Assembly (NCBI GenBank): GCA_002428985.1
Contig: DIYL01000059.1
Coordinates: forward strand, 127,573-191,572
Direction of reading: 5' to 3'
DNA from: Anaerolineales bacterium UBA6055
Lineage (GTDB): Bacteria; Chloroflexota; Anaerolineae; Aggregatilineales; Phototrophicaceae
Length of the DNA stretch: 64,000 nt
The notes under the pieces were generated by a model, which was given only the letters and a program-made list of their open reading frames with translations, had not been told where the DNA came from and did not search any database. Shown here one piece after another: positions 17,781 to 44,414 of this stretch (positions are counted from its first letter, which is position 1; the number at the start of each line of letters is the position of its first letter). Made by a program: the position numbers and the translations under genes.

Positions 17781-19970
17781 CTACTCGTCAAACGGACCAA
17801 AGTAATAATACTCCAGAATCTGGCGCGTGAGCGGGGCGGCAATCGCTGAACCATCACCAGCGTTTTCGACCATCGTCACGATTGCAATTTGCGGATCGTC
17901 AGCAGGCGCATACGCGATAAACCAACTATGTGGTTGTGCGCCTTCACCCGGGGCTTGGGCGGTTCCGGTTTTACCACACACACCTATATCGAGTAGTGGT
18001 GAATTACGGAAAATATGTGAGGCAGTCCCTGTACGTGTCGAGATGACATCGCACATACCGCCTCGAATAACATTAAGCGTATCGGCGCTAACTTCTGTAT
18101 CTTTGATCACATCGCGTTCAGCCACAATCGTTCGTTGATCGAGGATACCACGTTGACGCACCAATTGTGGCCGGAGCAAATACCCCCCATTCACAACCGC
18201 AGCATACATGCGTACCATCTGCAACGGCGATGCCTGCACCTCGCCCTGACCAATCGACAAGTTCACAGCAAAGGCATACGACCATGGCAAACCTGATGTT
18301 TGCAATACATTATCTGGTGTCGGGATATTTCCGGGAGATTCTTCAATATCGGTTAATCCCGTAAAGTCCCCGAGTCCCATCAGCAACGCATATTTCGAGA
18401 GCAAATACGGATCTTCGGCATTTAATCTAAAGCCAACTTCATAATAAAACGGGTTGCAACTATTCGTGACAGCCGATTGTACCGTCATCCGACCATGACC
18501 ACCCGCTAACCAGTCATAACGAAAATCCCCATTATGATTCCAGATCCCGTTACAAAAATACGCTGTCTCATCAATATAGACACCGCTTTCCAAGGCAGCT
18601 ACCGAACTCATGATTTTCATGACCGAGCCTGTCGGATAAACACCCTGCGTCGGGCGATTAAGCTGTGGCACACGATCATCTTCTGCCAGATCTTCCAACA
18701 CAAGGTCAGCGACTTCACGCCCGACAGCGGGGAATGGATTTTGTGCGTTGCCCTCAAATGTCGGATAGCTCGCCATCGCTAAAATTTCGCCATTATTGAC
18801 ATCCATCACAACAACCGAAGAGCCCGCCGACGTAGCCCCCCATGTGCCAGAATTTTCGATATAGGCTTCGCCAAGAACACGCAACGCATATTCCTGCAAG
18901 CCAGAGTCAATCGTCAACCAGAGGCTTTCGGGGATTTGTGAGCGCACTTCAGCAAGTGTCCGGAGGCGTTCACCTGTCGGCGAGACAATCACCAAACGCC
19001 CCCCCGGTTGACCCGCTAATGTATCATTCCAGCTTTCTTCAATGCCCGCTTTACCGATAATTGTCTCGGCATTAAAGCCAATCGCTTCCAGATCATCAAT
19101 TTCGTCTTCATCCGGATAGCCAACATGTCCGATCACATGAGGCATCAATGACCCACGCAGATAACGACGTGTCGCTTGTTGGCGGAATTCAGCACCACAT
19201 TTTTCTTCAACTTCTGCATTGCGTTGGAGGAACACAGCTGGCTCCATCACCCCTGCATCGACTTCCCAGTTCACACCAGACCGCACATCAAACAGATCAA
19301 CGATTTCTTCAAAGTCTTTATCGACCGTCTCACTCAAAACTTGGAAACATGCCGGACGGTCGGGAATATCTTCATTACTCACAAAGACACGCACAACCCG
19401 TCCATTTTGGTCGGCAAGTACTTCACCATCGCGGTCATAAATATTGGCACGACTCGGAATTTGTGGCTCGAAAACGAGTGTCGCACCATTACCCATTTCT
19501 CTAAAAATATCAGCTAATGACCATGCAACCCGCCATTCACCATTTTCAGGGTCAATCACCATCCGCAACTCGCGGTCAGTATCTGTAAATTGTCCCAGAA
19601 TCCGCGTATCGAAGGTCATATCATAATTAAACACAACAATCCGCACACCCTCACGTAACAGCGACTTAGCTGTATAGTGAATTGAACGGAACGTCATTGT
19701 TGTTTGAGCTTGGTCGTACAAACTGCGGAATGTCTCTAGAGGTGTTGATTCTTGGTTGCGGAATGTAAGCAAGCTGTGCATTGCGTCAAAATCTTGTCGT
19801 CGCCACGCATCCAAATACAACCGCGCAACCCGATCTGCCGCTTCGAGATCAGCAGGCGATGTCGGACTGGGTTGAATCGTTGGCAAGGGTTCAGCTTGGT
19901 GGGCGACCTGCGGGCGGCATCCAACCAAGACAATAAGAATAACAAAGGCGATAATTCCAAAACGACGCAC
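17781..19970 (-). CDS. Penicillin-binding protein 2-type transpeptidase with N-terminal extension
   Basis: 729-aa ORF. Lipoprotein-like signal LIVLVGCRPQ; SVMK (SxxK), SCN (SxN) and KTGTA motifs in the correct order. Confidence 0.85.
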   Translation of the reverse strand: MRRFGIIAFVILIVLVGCRPQVAHQAEPLPTIQPSPTSPADLEAADRVARLYLDAWRRQDFDAMHSLLTFRNQESTPLETFRSLYDQAQTTMTFRSIHYTAKSLLREGVRIVVFNYDMTFDTRILGQFTDTDRELRMVIDPENGEWRVAWSLADIFREMGNGATLVFEPQIPSRANIYDRDGEVLADQNGRVVRVFVSNEDIPDRPACFQVLSETVDKDFEEIVDLFDVRSGVNWEVDAGVMEPAVFLQRNAEVEEKCGAEFRQQATRRYLRGSLMPHVIGHVGYPDEDEIDDLEAIGFNAETIIGKAGIEESWNDTLAGQPGGRLVIVSPTGERLRTLAEVRSQIPESLWLTIDSGLQEYALRVLGEAYIENSGTWGATSAGSSVVVMDVNNGEILAMASYPTFEGNAQNPFPAVGREVADLVLEDLAEDDRVPQLNRPTQGVYPTGSVMKIMSSVAALESGVYIDETAYFCNGIWNHNGDFRYDWLAGGHGRMTVQSAVTNSCNPFYYEVGFRLNAEDPYLLSKYALLMGLGDFTGLTDIEESPGNIPTPDNVLQTSGLPWSYAFAVNLSIGQGEVQASPLQMVRMYAAVVNGGYLLRPQLVRQRGILDQRTIVAERDVIKDTEVSADTLNVIRGGMCDVISTRTGTASHIFRNSPLLDIGVCGKTGTAQAPGEGAQPHSWFIAYAPADDPQIAIVTMVENAGDGSAIAAPLTRQILEYYYFGPFDE

Positions 19971-27310: not shown

Positions 27311-28474
27311 ATGCACATCCTTCATGTAACCTCATATTATCGTCCAGCCTATGCCTTTGGTGGTGTTGTCCGCGCAGTCGAAGGTATGGCAACATCATTA
27401 GTAGCACGTGGACACCAAGTCACCGTGTTAACAACCGATGCCCTCGACCAACAATCACGTATCATAGACCCTGCTGAGGAAATCATAGACGGTGTACGTA
27501 TAATTCGCTGTCCCAATGTATCGCCCTCACTACGTGGAAAACTCAACCTCTCGACCCCACGTAGGATGCGTAAAATCGCCGAATCAATTATGCCCGATAT
27601 AGATATAGTCCATATCCATGAATTTCGCACAGTTGAAAATTTACTGGTCACACCTGTCGCATTCGACCACAATAAACCAATTGTGCTATCCCCGCATGGA
27701 ACAATCAATCTCACGACAGGTCGCAGTCAATTAAAAGCATGGTGGGACAAATTATTGAGTGCAAGTGTTGCCTTACGCATCGACCATATACTCGCCCTTG
27801 TTCAACCCGAATTAGACGATTGCCAAGCCCTCTGGGAGACATTCGGTCGCCGACAAATCCCGACCGAATTCAACATTATCCCCAATGGCATCAACCTCAA
27901 CGACTTGCACCCATTACCCGACGCCCGCGATTTTCGCGCAAAATATAATCTGGGAGATGCGCCAACTGTTCTGTTTATGGGGCGATTGCAAGCGCGAAAG
28001 GGCGTGGATATTCTGGTCAACGCCTTCAAACAAGCAGATATAGAAAATTCGCGTCTCTTAATTGTCGGGCCAGATGAAGGCATGATGGACACTGTGCGTG
28101 AACTTGCAGGGGATAATAAGCGTATTGTCATCACAGGCTATTTAGATGGGGAGGAACGCCTCCAAGCACTATCAGCTAGCGACATCTTTGCACTACCCGC
28201 AGTCGGAGAAGGATTATCAATGGCAATGCTTGAAGCAATGGGCGCAGGTTTACCTGTCATCTTGTCACTAGGATGCAACCTCGACCCACACGATGCCGGA
28301 TTTGTGGTGGATGTTGATCCAACCGCAATTGCAGACAAATTACGTTTGTTGCTGACCAATGGTGACTTACGCAACAATATGAGCCAATCAGCGCACGACC
28401 TTATCACGAACCACTATACATGGGGCAAAATCGCCGCGCAGTTGGAAGCCGTATATAGCTCATACATACAATAA
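27311..28474 (+). CDS. GT4-family (GT-B fold) glycosyltransferase
   Basis: 387-aa ORF. Has the YRPAYAFGGV N-terminus and the E-x7-E region EGLSMAMLEAMGAGLPVI. Confidence 0.85.
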   Translation: MHILHVTSYYRPAYAFGGVVRAVEGMATSLVARGHQVTVLTTDALDQQSRIIDPAEEIIDGVRIIRCPNVSPSLRGKLNLSTPRRMRKIAESIMPDIDIVHIHEFRTVENLLVTPVAFDHNKPIVLSPHGTINLTTGRSQLKAWWDKLLSASVALRIDHILALVQPELDDCQALWETFGRRQIPTEFNIIPNGINLNDLHPLPDARDFRAKYNLGDAPTVLFMGRLQARKGVDILVNAFKQADIENSRLLIVGPDEGMMDTVRELAGDNKRIVITGYLDGEERLQALSASDIFALPAVGEGLSMAMLEAMGAGLPVILSLGCNLDPHDAGFVVDVDPTAIADKLRLLLTNGDLRNNMSQSAHDLITNHYTWGKIAAQLEAVYSSYIQ

Positions 28475-30232: not shown

Positions 30233-31237
30233 ATGACGAAATCTAAGCGCAAAAATGATGAGATATTACAGCCTACCTTTTTACGATTCGTCAAATACGT
30301 TATTCTTGTGTCTATTAGTCTTATCGTACCGTTAGCGTTGATGTTTTTTTGTTCAACTACTGTACTAATGATTAGCTCGCATACATCAGATTGTTTCATG
30401 AGTCCATGTCTTCCCGATTGGGACGACATGAACGATGTGGCGGATTATTATAATTTTTACATCCCATCCTCAGCAAGTAATATCAAGTATGTTAATGATG
30501 ATGCTGATGCATTCTTCGAAATCCATTTTGATCTACCTAAGAATGATTTTGATAGCATTAGGAATCGTACTTGCCAAGGTAACTTCCAAGCAGGATATGA
30601 TCCATCTCAAAGCAAACATCAATTTTCGAGCGAATACCCAACTATACTTATAAAATCCTTTGAGTATCCCTTTTACTCACACTCAGTTGATACACCAACT
30701 CATATCTTAGGTAAACTATGCCGTTGGGATTTAGCGATTCGTGTAGATACATCAAATCCTGATATATATAAAATCACTTATCAACGCTATGAATACACCA
30801 CAACAGCTTGCGAAGTTGAGTGTTTTACAACACAGCGTTTTATCAAACCAATTAATAATTCACTGTTTGCTGTAAGTGGATTGATAGAAAGAAATGATAC
30901 ATTTTACATAGAATTTAATACTTTATGTTTCGACAGCAAAATGTATCAAATTATCAATCCAACCAATCAATATCTACCTGCGTTTACACAAATCAACATC
31001 TCTATTGATGATATGTTCTTCCTACCTACAGGGATCGTAACTAAATATCATCGTTTAGTACGAGATTATATTCTTCTAGATGAGGAAGACCATGATTTAG
31101 CACGTTACCAACAGAGTCCACTTAATGAATTTTGTATCGAACATGATTGGGAGCAAGGTAAACATACCGTAAATGTTGAAATGATTTTGCCAGATGGCAT
31201 GATCGAAAATCACAGTTTTGATTTTTATGTCGATTAA
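30233..31237 (+). CDS. Hypothetical membrane-anchored protein
   Basis: 334-aa ORF with GAGG RBS. N-terminal TM VILVSISLIVPLALMFFCSTTVLMI, then a Cys-containing extracytoplasmic region. The gene is AT-rich. Confidence 0.5.
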   Translation: MTKSKRKNDEILQPTFLRFVKYVILVSISLIVPLALMFFCSTTVLMISSHTSDCFMSPCLPDWDDMNDVADYYNFYIPSSASNIKYVNDDADAFFEIHFDLPKNDFDSIRNRTCQGNFQAGYDPSQSKHQFSSEYPTILIKSFEYPFYSHSVDTPTHILGKLCRWDLAIRVDTSNPDIYKITYQRYEYTTTACEVECFTTQRFIKPINNSLFAVSGLIERNDTFYIEFNTLCFDSKMYQIINPTNQYLPAFTQINISIDDMFFLPTGIVTKYHRLVRDYILLDEEDHDLARYQQSPLNEFCIEHDWEQGKHTVNVEMILPDGMIENHSFDFYVD

Positions 31238-31442
31238 CCTACTAATCTCATCAGAGACAATCAAATTGTAGAACATTCATAACCAATAGATATTTATATT
31301 CTGGCAGATGCTATGTCATGTGTCCTATTTTTTATGCGATTAATACACTTCGCACAGCGGATTAAGATGCCAGAAACTACGGAACGCACTATAATAAGCG
31401 TGTTAAGTGTATTTGCTCAATCACGAATAGGAGATAACACGT

Positions 31443-31877
31443 ATGGCAACCAATATGCAAGAAGTTGATAGCCTCGTCGCAAATGAGTTTTCAGTTGAGG
31501 TTGATGGTAATGAAGTGCAAGGTGTGTTCAGTGTTGAAGGGTTGACATTGTTTCAACTGAGTGACGACGGAACACGCATGAATCCCGCATTGAAAATCAC
31601 CAAAATGGTACAACGCGATGCCAGCTTACCGTTCAATCAATGGCACAAAGAAACAATGGACAGCCGCGATTCGGATACCCGTCCAACCCGTACATTAGCT
31701 GTTGTTGCAATTGATGATGGTGTCGAGACCCGTCGCTGGACATTAAAAGATGCCTATATCACAAGCATTAGCTATTCTAATTATGACGCCGGCTCATCGG
31801 AAATGATTGAAGAACAATATACCATTGCCTACAACGATATTGAAGAAACTTGGACATTCGCGGATTCTAACGCGTAG
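31443..31877 (+). CDS. Contractile-tail tube-like protein (T4 gp19 / eCIS tube family pattern), orphan
   Basis: 144-aa ORF with GGAG 9 nt upstream. FSVEVDGNEVQGVFSVEGL, LPFNQWHKE and RRWTLKDAYITSISYSNYDAGSSEMIEEQYTIAYNDIE follow the conserved layout of tail-tube proteins as I recall it. Confidence 0.65.
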   Translation: MATNMQEVDSLVANEFSVEVDGNEVQGVFSVEGLTLFQLSDDGTRMNPALKITKMVQRDASLPFNQWHKETMDSRDSDTRPTRTLAVVAIDDGVETRRWTLKDAYITSISYSNYDAGSSEMIEEQYTIAYNDIEETWTFADSNA

Positions 31878-31890
31878 GATGATAAACATC

Positions 31891-31923
31891 TGTAGAGAAG
31901 GGAGACAGACTCTCTTCTCTACA
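31891..31923. terminator. Hairpin between convergent genes
   Basis: TGTAGAGAAGGGAG / CTCTCTTCTCTACA forms a 14-bp stem (one G-U) with a 5-nt loop. No strong T-run follows. Confidence 0.5.
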
Positions 31924-31940
31924 ATCCCTATTGAAGTCAA

Positions 31941-32660
31941 TTAGGCGCGGTCACCGAATAGATCGGGAGGACGTTGGGTAAACATATAGCCGACACCACG
32001 TTCGGTGCGGATATAGTGCGGATGGTGTGAATCCGACTCCAACTTACGACGTAAACGATGCATATGAACGCGCAGTGTATCTTCAAATACATCTTCAGAC
32101 GGCCAGACCCGCGCAATTAACATACGGTTCTCAACCACGCGCCCGGCATTACGTAACAACACGTGAAGTAAAATAGATTCAGTTGGAGTTAAGCCGATTG
32201 TCTTGCCGTTCACCACAATGCGATTATGTGCAAAATCAATGTTCAGATGTTCATCAACGCGAACAATGGGTTCACTCGCATAATCAAAGCTTGGCATACG
32301 CGCTAACACCACTTGTATACGAGCTTCTAATTCACGCAACTCAAATGGTTTTACAATAAAGTCTTCTGCATACTTTTTCAGACCTTGTACAATGGTTTCT
32401 TTATCACCTGTGGATGTCACAAAAATAATAGGGACATCTGCCATCGACTTAAGCTTATTCGCAAGTTCAAACCCGTGCATGCTCGGCAGAGATAAATCGA
32501 CGAGCGCAATATGTGGCAAACCGCGCTGGCGCACATATTCCAGTGCTTCGGGTCCATCACTAAATCCAGTAACATCATAACCAGTTTTTGTAAGATAATC
32601 TGTAATAAGCTTACTGACGTTTGTGTCGTCTTCAACCATCAGTACTTTTGATTTTTTCAT
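31941..32660 (-). CDS. OmpR/PhoB-family response regulator
   Basis: Receiver domain (VLMVEDD, ALVDLSLP, KPF) plus winged-helix output (LTPTESILLHVL, VHMHRLRRKL, GVGYMF). No histidine kinase gene is adjacent. Confidence 0.9.
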   Translation of the reverse strand: MKKSKVLMVEDDTNVSKLITDYLTKTGYDVTGFSDGPEALEYVRQRGLPHIALVDLSLPSMHGFELANKLKSMADVPIIFVTSTGDKETIVQGLKKYAEDFIVKPFELRELEARIQVVLARMPSFDYASEPIVRVDEHLNIDFAHNRIVVNGKTIGLTPTESILLHVLLRNAGRVVENRMLIARVWPSEDVFEDTLRVHMHRLRRKLESDSHHPHYIRTERGVGYMFTQRPPDLFGDRA

Positions 32661-32833
32661 TATACTATTACTCGCTTTCTGCGACTTTCGATTTTAGTGA
32701 ATTAAATGTTATTTGTAATGTAACAAATATACACTAATTGTAATACTAAGTCAAATATAAAAACAAATCGTATATAACTTTTTACATTATCTTTAGGGTA
32801 TTTGCTAAGCACTAATATAACACACCCTCAATC

Positions 32834-41822: not shown

Positions 41823-44414
41823 CTAATCGTATCGTTCGTAATTATCCTGATTATCTGACGATTCGTATCCGGTATAATCCAGTTCCTCATCATGAGACTG
41901 CGACGTTGAATACTCGGATTGTTCATATCCATCAAAGTCTTGTGGATAGTCATCTTGTATCTCCACAAAATCAGTTTGCTGGTCAAGATGACGGGTAAAC
42001 GACAATTCACCCTTCTTCTCATCAATCACGACCAGATCGCCTTGTACGAAATCACCTTTGAGCAATTGAATACTCAGCGGATTTTCTACATAACGTTGCA
42101 ATGCACGGCGTAGAGGTCGCGCACCAAATTGTGGATCATACCCTTGTTTTGCAATCCAATTACGAGCAGGTTCGGTCAGATGAATCGCCAGACCGGATTC
42201 TTGCAAGCGTTCTGCGAGACCGCGCAATTGCAAGTCAACCATTTGCTCAACCGCTTTCAGTGTCAGTGGTTCGAAAATGATAATCTCATCGATACGATTC
42301 AAGAATTCCGGACGGAAGGTATCACGCATCGCTTTTTCAATTTTCTGATGATCGGCGATAGCTTCTTGGTCACCGCCTTGGATAAACCCAAGTGCGCCAC
42401 CTTTTTTCGCGAATTCTGTCCCGAGGTTACTCGTCATAATCAGTACTGTATTGCGGAAGTCGACGACATGCCCCTGCCCATCAGTCATACGACCATCTTC
42501 AAGAACTTGTAGCAAGGCACTCCACACATCTGAGTGTGCTTTTTCAATCTCATCAAATAAGATGACACGATAAGGACGGCGACGTACAGCTTCTGTCAGT
42601 TGACCACCAGCTTCATATCCGACGTAGCCTGGAGGCGCACCAAACAAACGACTGACAGTATGTTTTTCACGATACTCACTCATATCGACACGCACCAGCG
42701 CATCTTCATCATCAAACATGAACTCAGCTAGCGATTTTGCAAGTTCGGTCTTACCAACACCACTCGACCCAAGGAAGATGAACGACCCAATTGGACGTTT
42801 CGGATCTTTAAGGCCACTACGCGCCCGACGAATCGCATCAGATAATGCCTCGACCGCTTTTTCCTGACCGATTACGCGTTCGTGTAAAACTTCTTCCATG
42901 CGCAGCAATTTCTCGGACTCAGTTTCCAGCATTTGATGCACCGGAATACCTGTCCACTGCTCAACAACCTGTGCAATATCATCGGCTGTCACCAGCTCAT
43001 CAAGTGTATTTTCTTGTCGCCAGATATACCGCTCCCGCTCAAATTCTTCTTCAAGCTGAATCCGTTGCATTTTGCAATCCGCAGCCCGTTCATAATCTCT
43101 CGATAAGCCAGCAGCTTCTTCTTCCATTGCCAACCGATCGACAGCTTCACGCATTTCTTTAAGTCGCGGTGGCATCGAAAATAACGCAACCCGCAATTTT
43201 GCAGCCGCTTCGTCTAACAAATCAATCGCTTTATCAGGGAGTTTACGTTCTGTGAGGTAACGCGCAGACAAACGTGCTGCCGCCTCGATCGCATCATCAG
43301 AAATCGTAACATTATGATGCGCTTCGTATCGATCACGAATCCCATAAAGCATTTCGACGGTATCTTCGACACTAGGTTCTTCGACAAAAATAGGCGCAAA
43401 ACGACGATCTAACGCACTATCTTTTTCGATATATTGGCGATATTCGTCCATCGTGGTCGCACCGACAGTCTGTAACTCACCGCGTGCCAATGCAGGCTTC
43501 ATCATATTACCCGCATCCATCGCGCCAGCGCCGGCACCGGCACCAACAACTTGATGCAACTCATCAATAAAGAGGATAATCTCGCCATCGGAACGTTGTA
43601 CCTCTTCAATAACCGCTTTGAGCCGTTCCTCAAATTCACCACGGAAGCGACTACCAGCCACCATACCACTCAGGTCAAGGCTGAGCACGCGCTTATTCAG
43701 CAAAATATCAGGCACATCAGCCGTCGCAATTTTTTGGGCTAAACCTTCGACAATTGCTGTTTTACCCACACCCGCTTCACCGATGAGAACAGGGTTATTT
43801 TTTGTACGGCGACTCAACACTTGAATCACGCGCAAAATTTCTGCATCGCGCCCAACCACAGGGTCAAGTTTACTTTCCATCGCCATACGCGTTAGGTCGC
43901 GGCTATATTTTTCTAGGGTACGGTAACGGCTTTCTGCCTGTGGGTCAGTCACCCGTTGTCCACCGCGAATATCTTTCACCGCATCGGAGACACGGTCGCG
44001 AGTAATATCATAATCCGCCATCAGCTTGGCTACCGCCGTATTACGCTCCGCTAAAATTGCGAGGAAAATATGCTCAGTGCTGATATATTCGTCGCGTAGT
44101 CGGCTGGCTTCTTCATTAGCACGGTCAATAATGCTCTTCAGGCGCGGGGTGATAAATACCTGATTCGTTCCCTGACCATAAATCGCCGCAGTCCGTGGGC
44201 TTTGGCGCAGAACATCATCAACGCGGGAACGCATACCACTCACATCTATATTGAGGCGTTCCAATACCTGTGGGATGACACCATCAGTCTGTTCAAGCAG
44301 AGCCAGCAAAATATGCTCAGTATCTACTTGATTATGTCCATATCGTTGTAAAATCTCATAGGCACGGGCAGCAGCATCTTGTGCGCGTTCCGTAAATCTG
44401 TCAAATCGTAGCAT
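41823..44414 (-). CDS. clpC: ClpC-class AAA+ ATPase with UVR-like middle domain and unusual acidic/Tyr-rich C-terminal tail
   Basis: Two Clp_N repeats; GEAGVGKT and GSSGVGKT Walker A motifs. The ~80-aa middle domain contains [11 protein letters not shown], which is UVR-like, so it is ClpC-type rather than ClpB-type. It has a ~45-aa tail, [43 protein letters not shown]. Confidence 0.85.

Follow-up and report, generated by a model that had tools for sequence, protein, structure and literature searches.

The described proteins most like the one reported here are the tubes of eCIS, such as Cis1 of Streptomyces coelicolor (8bl4/9gts), Pvc1/Pvc5 (6j0b/6j0n) and Afp1/Afp5 (6rao/6rap). The genes of known tail-like machines occur in clusters, and those of the eCIS tubes lie with the genes for sheath, baseplate, spike, cap and ATPase. 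A related fold is found in Hcp of the T6SS (PF05638), also a small stand-alone protein, whose tube-fold hexamer is able to serve as a carrier ring or effector chaperone; orphan hcp genes serve a T6SS encoded elsewhere in the genome. Phage T4 gp19 and the tail tubes of myophages (PF06841, PHROG 4542) form a further group of relatives. To our knowledge, the well-known domestications of contractile tails (T6SS, tailocins, eCIS, MACs, and the thylakoid-anchored and cytoplasmic CIS) all retain the tube together with sheath and baseplate.

The gene under study lies within a window of 64,000 nucleotides, the whole stretch of DNA that was analysed (G000:C27:127573-191572), which belongs to an assembly of 8.5 Mb in 62 contigs from a coral metagenome. 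Its product of 144 aa is equal in size to the eCIS tubes (~145 aa) and, as modelled, alike in fold over the full length. Unlike the eCIS tube genes it never shares a cluster with genes for sheath or baseplate; unlike the orphan hcp genes it is carried mostly by genomes without any sheath; and unlike the phage tail tubes it is cellular, vertically inherited and placed in housekeeping contexts. The explanation favoured here, with a probability of about 0.65, is that of an exapted tail-tube protein, independent of sheath, baseplate and spike, which is likely a ring-forming scaffold or carrier in the cell.

The literature was searched both for CIS in Chloroflexota or Aggregatilineales and for tail-tube proteins described as orphan, stand-alone or exapted, and only cluster-based CIS work was found. 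CIS clusters have been reported in hot-spring Roseiflexus and Aggregatilineales MAGs (PMC12998442) and a metagenome-wide census of CIS has been published (PMC12210884), with no solitary tube family described in either, nor was one indicated by any other title or abstract listed. No description of a stand-alone, inherited family of tail-tube proteins was thus found in the literature searched.

The tube-like gene and its surroundings in the window

The features of the window to which reference is made are as follows:

31443 to 31877, plus strand: coding sequence of the solitary tube-fold protein, 144 aa, stop codon included (open reading frame, PF06841 match, model)
31367 to 31395, plus strand: promoter-like element ATGCCA, 17 nt, TATAAT (consensus scan, 10 of 12 matches; putative promoter)
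31430 to 31433, plus strand: GGAG ribosome-binding site, nine bases 5' of the ATG (read from the sequence)
31892 to 31922, no strand assigned: 13-bp stem-loop that separates the tube-like gene from the convergent response-regulator gene (RNA fold)
17781 to 19970: class B penicillin-binding protein (MecA_N-PBP_dimer-Transpeptidase), context gene
27311 to 28474: GT4 glycosyltransferase, context gene
41823 to 44414: ClpC-type double-AAA+ chaperone, context gene, not an eCIS-type ATPase

An earlier reading of this DNA, made from the sequence alone (the sequence-only reading), had described the ORF with its N-terminal, FNQW and C-terminal segments exactly as it is found, and its account of the surrounding signals also holds. 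The gene has its own GGAG ribosome-binding site, and the region around it (AATAGGAGATAA) is the same in locus L007. The TATAAT hexamer placed by that reading at 31390–31395 was recovered by the consensus scan, paired with ATGCCA at a spacing of 17 nt, and this −10 box with its flanking bases is kept upstream of the orthologues in L007 and G023, the two closest orthologous loci. The strong hairpin noted after the gene was likewise confirmed, with the fold of 31875–31945 having an energy of −26.8 kcal/mol (z = −4.4) and none of 200 shuffles being as stable. This hairpin has no T-run, and the terminator scan made no intrinsic-terminator call there; it is likely a bidirectional terminator or transcript-end structure. 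Due to its own promoter-like region, its ribosome-binding site and the 3' hairpin before the convergent regulator, the tube-like gene looks like an independent monocistronic unit.

The convergent gene downstream encodes a response regulator, as had been read, and is of the OmpR type. The only RNA run with any part of the region, a coral metatranscriptome of 2024, yielded a contig of 222 nt that covers the 5' part of this gene (window positions 32471–32692) with four mismatches, and nothing over the tube-like gene itself. The contig suggests transcriptional activity in coral samples, be it of the organism or of a close relative. The upstream neighbour, an ORF of 334 aa (30233–31237), is AT-rich as had been stated, at 34.6% GC vs 43.6% for the window, and gave no match to Pfam or to the PADLOC models. 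It looks like an insertion between the tube-like gene and a divergently transcribed neighbour of 184 aa. In L007 these two genes adjoin with a spacer of 226 bp, and the same slot in G023 holds an unrelated ORF, also of 334 aa, on the opposite strand. The GC content of the tube-like gene equals the genome average.

The statement that sheath, baseplate, spike and AAA+ genes are absent from the 64 kb stands for the structural genes of CIS, none of which was found, but not for AAA+ genes, given the ClpC-type chaperone. There were also no phage genes near the tube-like gene in the window. In several relatives, too, the tube-like gene has penicillin-binding protein or GT4 genes close by, apparently through lineage synteny and not through a functional link.

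Family membership, fold and motifs

The assignment of the protein to the tail-tube family of contractile tails, which had been proposed from its layout, was borne out by PF06841 (Phage_T4_gp19), with 38.9 bits against a gathering cut-off of 28.2 (E = 9.2e-10, residues 47–133). Judged by this profile match, the predicted membership is far beyond chance, and PF06841 is present in all 120 listed homologues. A match to a PHROG tail-tube family was also obtained (E = 3.6e-7). Of the two profiles which the sequence-only reading had proposed as a check, PF06841 was thus passed and TIGR02241 was not (35.2 vs 62.4). The other cut-offs of NCBIfam for eCIS tubes were not reached either, namely those of CIS1_fam (NF053769; 25.2 vs 220) and CIS5_fam (14.1 vs 260), and the Hcp model of Pfam also fell short (PF05638; 16.8 bits vs 23.5). 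No PADLOC defence-system model matched the protein.

The AlphaFold2 model (pLDDT 88.9, pTM 0.80) has the beta-sandwich with one flanking helix, of ~140 residues, which makes up the tube fold. When it was compared with the PDB using Foldseek, 75 matches had E <= 0.001 and the top 50 were all tube or Hcp proteins, the best being S. coelicolor Cis1, Pvc1/Pvc5, Afp1/Afp5, AlgoCIS and the Anabaena CIS, followed by Hcp. Against the eCIS tubes of known structure named above, TM values of 0.62–0.71 were obtained (Foldseek E of 2e-7 to 2e-5, identity 11–20%), and against Hcp values of ~0.5–0.59. On the strength of the model, the view that the protein would adopt a full-length tube fold closest to the eCIS tubes is sound. 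A profile built from 38 family members also matches the CIS tube sequence of S. coelicolor (8bl4/9gts) with E = 5.5e-11.

The family shares with the eCIS tubes the core motifs FxVxIDG...G.F..V.GL, a Trp-bearing helix, (R)W...aW and an E-rich strand at the C-terminus. It differs from them in being without the canonical PGRxKW...KRG motif and in being shorter by ~11–16 residues in the hairpin and pre-helix region. When the family was compared by hhalign with a profile of canonical Chloroflexota eCIS tubes, the two were colinear over 130 columns (60% probability, 17% identity), and GLGSE, PGRxKW, KRG and WxWR, all invariant in the alignment of the canonical tubes, were seen to be replaced or deleted. 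The near-invariant motifs of the family itself are VDSLVANEF, KMVQRD, FNxW, RPTR, AIDDGVETRRW and E124, and its members are acidic (pI 4.1–5.3). By position in the protein, the invariant residues of the family are D9–F16, K54–D59, N65, W67, D91–W99 and E124. An argument from unusually high conservation for a tube protein was dropped, as the canonical Chloroflexota eCIS tubes are equally conserved.

Around 150 close homologues were found, with 46–85% identity and lengths of ~140–190 aa throughout, those named being from MAGs of Chloroflexota, Anaerolineae, Aggregatilineales and Phototrophicaceae. A single-protein scan of genome contigs gave 14 named loci. Among 1.84 billion cluster representatives only 39 matches were obtained at E <= 0.001; two giant homologues from this search (P0125 and P0144) were rejected, being long repeat proteins whose matches are repeat artefacts. 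Apparent domain fusions, suggested by long open frames upstream of the gene in high-GC relatives, were also discarded as non-coding read-through, with the true starts lying 10–17 codons before the DSL motif. Genuine N-terminal extensions of 40–80 aa do occur in some sublineages and are of low complexity or disordered. An extension of 45 aa is found in P0031, P0033, P0039, P0064 and P0068; that of P0136 and host family f8 is Q/P-rich and that of P0137 is K/A-rich. One of the extended groups has a common acidic amphipathic segment, ILKPEEEAS..DF.AAL.AA.

Distribution, gene context and the eCIS of the same genome

To describe the distribution of the gene, 200 genomes from the order to which the window belongs, taken as one fixed sample, were searched with the family profile and two sheath models (PF04984 and PF17482). 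The gene was present in 120 of them, always as one copy, with one further case split over two contig ends. By host family the carriers number 55 of 79 (f1), 38 of 42 (f2), 9 of 10 (f6) and 18 of 19 (f8), and the gene was found in none of the 50 genomes of the other four families of the order nor in any of ~290 genomes from other orders of the class. The searches also returned no copy from 19 genomes sampled in the genus of the window or from three of a sister genus, and the gene is therefore dispensable in some lineages.

The sheath is patchy in its distribution, with 58–60 of the 200 genomes being positive. At least 75 of the 120 carriers gave no match to PF04984 or PF17482 (33 in f1, 30 in f2, 9 in f6 and 3 in f8), an absence which is defined by Pfam models and which, beyond five genomes in one or two contigs, concerns draft MAGs; conversely, 15 genomes are sheath-positive without the tube-like gene. 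The family does not track the presence of eCIS and is independent of that of the sheath. In the five carrier genomes that are assembled in one or two contigs, no match was found to sheath, gp25, spike OB domain, CIS_tube or Pvc16 cap, the negatives for CIS_tube and Pvc16_N being weaker as both matched 0 of 14 control genomes in those searches; by hmmscan the two models do recognise the proteins of G000 itself. The tube-like gene is the only PF06841 match in these five genomes, save for one extra canonical tube in G493.

The gene context was compared across 24 loci, in which the tube-like gene is flanked by ordinary genes of the chromosome (AspRS, class B penicillin-binding protein, YceI, TPR proteins, glycosyltransferase, RecO and DnaA). 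The only synteny detected is local to lineages, with AspRS upstream in four, the class B penicillin-binding protein adjacent in three and the GT4 glycosyltransferase nearby in five, and an all-against-all BLAST of the loci revealed no recurring partner gene. The divergently transcribed neighbour of 184 aa was considered as a partner and rejected, being confined to one host family and lying ~0.7–1.8 Mb away in the three genomes where both genes are on one contig.

These data bear on the possibility that the protein belongs to a so far unrecognised machine of a tail-like or tube-based kind, which would be non-contractile or highly divergent and have its other parts scattered in the genome, beyond the current Pfam models. 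Such a machine would fit with the retention of the full tube fold and of a highly conserved N-terminal arm, as expected of a protein that polymerises against partners, and no more than six CIS marker families were covered in the five one- or two-contig genomes. The lack of a recurring adjacent gene in the 24 loci nevertheless speaks against it, as does the restricted and mostly distant occurrence of the one conserved close neighbour, and known tail-like machines are clustered, unlike this solitary gene. This explanation is the best placed of the alternatives and is still considered unlikely.

The exaptation of a tube protein, favoured above, has also to be weighed against the eCIS of the window's own genome. 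Whole-genome searches of G000 placed its only matches to sheath, gp25, spike and Baseplate_J on contigs other than C27, the contig bearing the tube-like gene, on which no CIS gene was found. The orphan status which had been claimed for the gene is therefore correct locally. The genome as a whole, for which the sequence-only reading had suggested a scan for sheath, baseplate and spike genes, does hold all of these, in the form of exactly one complete eCIS that is split across the end of contig C54 and the start of C25:

C25:1-8961 (L021), minus strand: one half of the eCIS, with WHD+AAA ATPase, Pvc16-type cap, sheath, Afp1-like tube, an ORF of 122 aa, Afp5-like tube and a repeat-rich ORF running off the contig end
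C54:382487-388834 (L022): other half of the eCIS, with the rest of the repeat-rich ORF, then CIS_tube initiator, VgrG-like spike, gp25, Baseplate_J and FHA protein
G000:C25:93751-94179 (L023:5752-6177): third canonical tube gene, solitary, next to an AraC-family regulator and at a distance of ~88 kb from the eCIS

The assembly break falls inside the repeat-rich ORF, which exceeds 1,340 aa, has ESLSI-PP-VQR repeats in both halves and is possibly tape-measure-like. The third canonical tube has 79% identity to the Afp1-like tube of the cluster. A canonical solitary tube is also present in the single-contig genome G493 (C1:5596788), without sheath or gp25, and canonical tubes that occur alone may constitute a second phenomenon. 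It should also be noted that the 8.5 Mb of G000 is around twice the size of the sampled genomes of its genus (3.2–5.0 Mb), with the exception of G023 (6.6 Mb), and that G000 and G023 are the sole sampled members of the genus with both the tube-like gene and an eCIS. A mixture of two organisms was considered for the G000 assembly and rejected; as GC and tetranucleotide composition are unimodal, it appears to derive from one organism, and a genuine lineage with large genomes seems more plausible than a mixed bin.

A role in the eCIS of G000 itself, as a spare or specialised subunit of its tube (for instance a cargo adaptor or an alternative tube layer) encoded outside the cluster, would be in keeping with the completeness of that eCIS and with one host family in which 15 of 18 carriers are also sheath-positive. 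This is difficult to reconcile with the sheath-less carriers (at least 75 of the 120), with the five one- or two-contig genomes lacking the CIS parts searched for, and with the 15 sheath-positive genomes that do without the gene. The cluster, moreover, already encodes Afp1-like, Afp5-like and Afp7-like tubes; BLASTP of the window's protein against the three canonical tubes of G000 gave no significant match, and in a maximum-likelihood tree the family is set apart from them by a branch of ~9.6 substitutions per site. Such a role is accordingly held to be improbable, more so than that of a hidden machine, and the tube-like protein of G000 is probably not part of the eCIS on C54 and C25. Of the two explanations put forward by the sequence-only reading, the exapted tube protein is thus the one favoured, and a dispersed or reduced injection system is not, in view of the genome's own eCIS tubes elsewhere and the sheath-less carriers.

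Inheritance and proposed role

The maximum-likelihood tree, which included 37 orthologues, recovered the host families f1 (99/98), f8 (100/97) and f6 (89/91), with f2 being unresolved but compatible, and genomes of one genus came out as pairs. Relative to its two closest orthologues, the gene has a dN/dS of ~0.08, at dS values of 1.3–2.4 that are saturated. A tblastn search of 50,697 phage genomes gave no relatives, and neither did a search of the 2.9 million viral contigs of IMG/VR with the two most conserved motifs. The tube-like gene is shown by these analyses to be single-copy, vertically inherited, under purifying selection and solitary, and to represent a separate family restricted to the order. 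Decay, as a leftover of a prophage tail or of an eCIS cluster since lost, or recent transfer as a mobile gene would suit a solitary gene that in G000 adjoins an AT-rich, inserted-looking ORF, but is highly improbable given the intact frame, the low dN/dS with saturated dS, the single copy with a tree congruent with the host families, the conserved promoter-like region and ribosome-binding site, the GC content at the genome average and the lack of relatives in the viral collections searched; the degraded prophage remnant, named by the sequence-only reading as what would remove the novelty, is excluded by purifying selection and vertical inheritance.

As an exapted tube protein, the gene product would stand alone in the cytoplasm, be acidic and have the fold of the inner tube of contractile tails (gp19/Afp1/Hcp). 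Its family, distinct and deep-branching, would have become fixed in a common ancestor of four families within one order of Anaerolineae; since then the gene has descended vertically in single copy, as a monocistronic chromosomal unit under strong purifying selection, in genomes with or without a contractile injection system. By analogy with other tube and Hcp proteins, it would most likely self-assemble into hexameric rings and possibly into short sheath-less stacks, and the ring would serve some client in the cell as scaffold or carrier. Both suggestions are made because the full-length tube fold is retained and the pI is acidic (4.1–5.3). The N-terminal arm with VDSLVANEF and the KMVQRD, FNxW and AIDDGVETRRW motifs are, from their sequence conservation, candidate surfaces for assembly or for the binding of partners. 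The loss of residues around the hairpin and before the helix, and that of the PGRxKW...KRG motif, could impair the formation of rings or stacks. The claim that the tube protein was domesticated alone, with sheath-independent rings or tubes serving as scaffold, carrier or cytoskeletal element, and that this would be the first documented exaptation of the kind, is regarded as evenly balanced.

What sets this family apart is that the tube protein alone is conserved and vertically inherited in a bacterial order, mostly in genomes without a sheath. There is also a caution for annotation, as such genes are labelled 'phage tail protein' and may be miscounted as evidence of a prophage or of an eCIS, and the tube-like genes are neither cargo nor parts of the eCIS in the same genome. 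The 144-aa protein offers a small, soluble and defined target with which the function of sheath-less tube proteins could be addressed. If the favoured explanation is true, the tube/Hcp fold would be recruitable by itself for the biology of the host.
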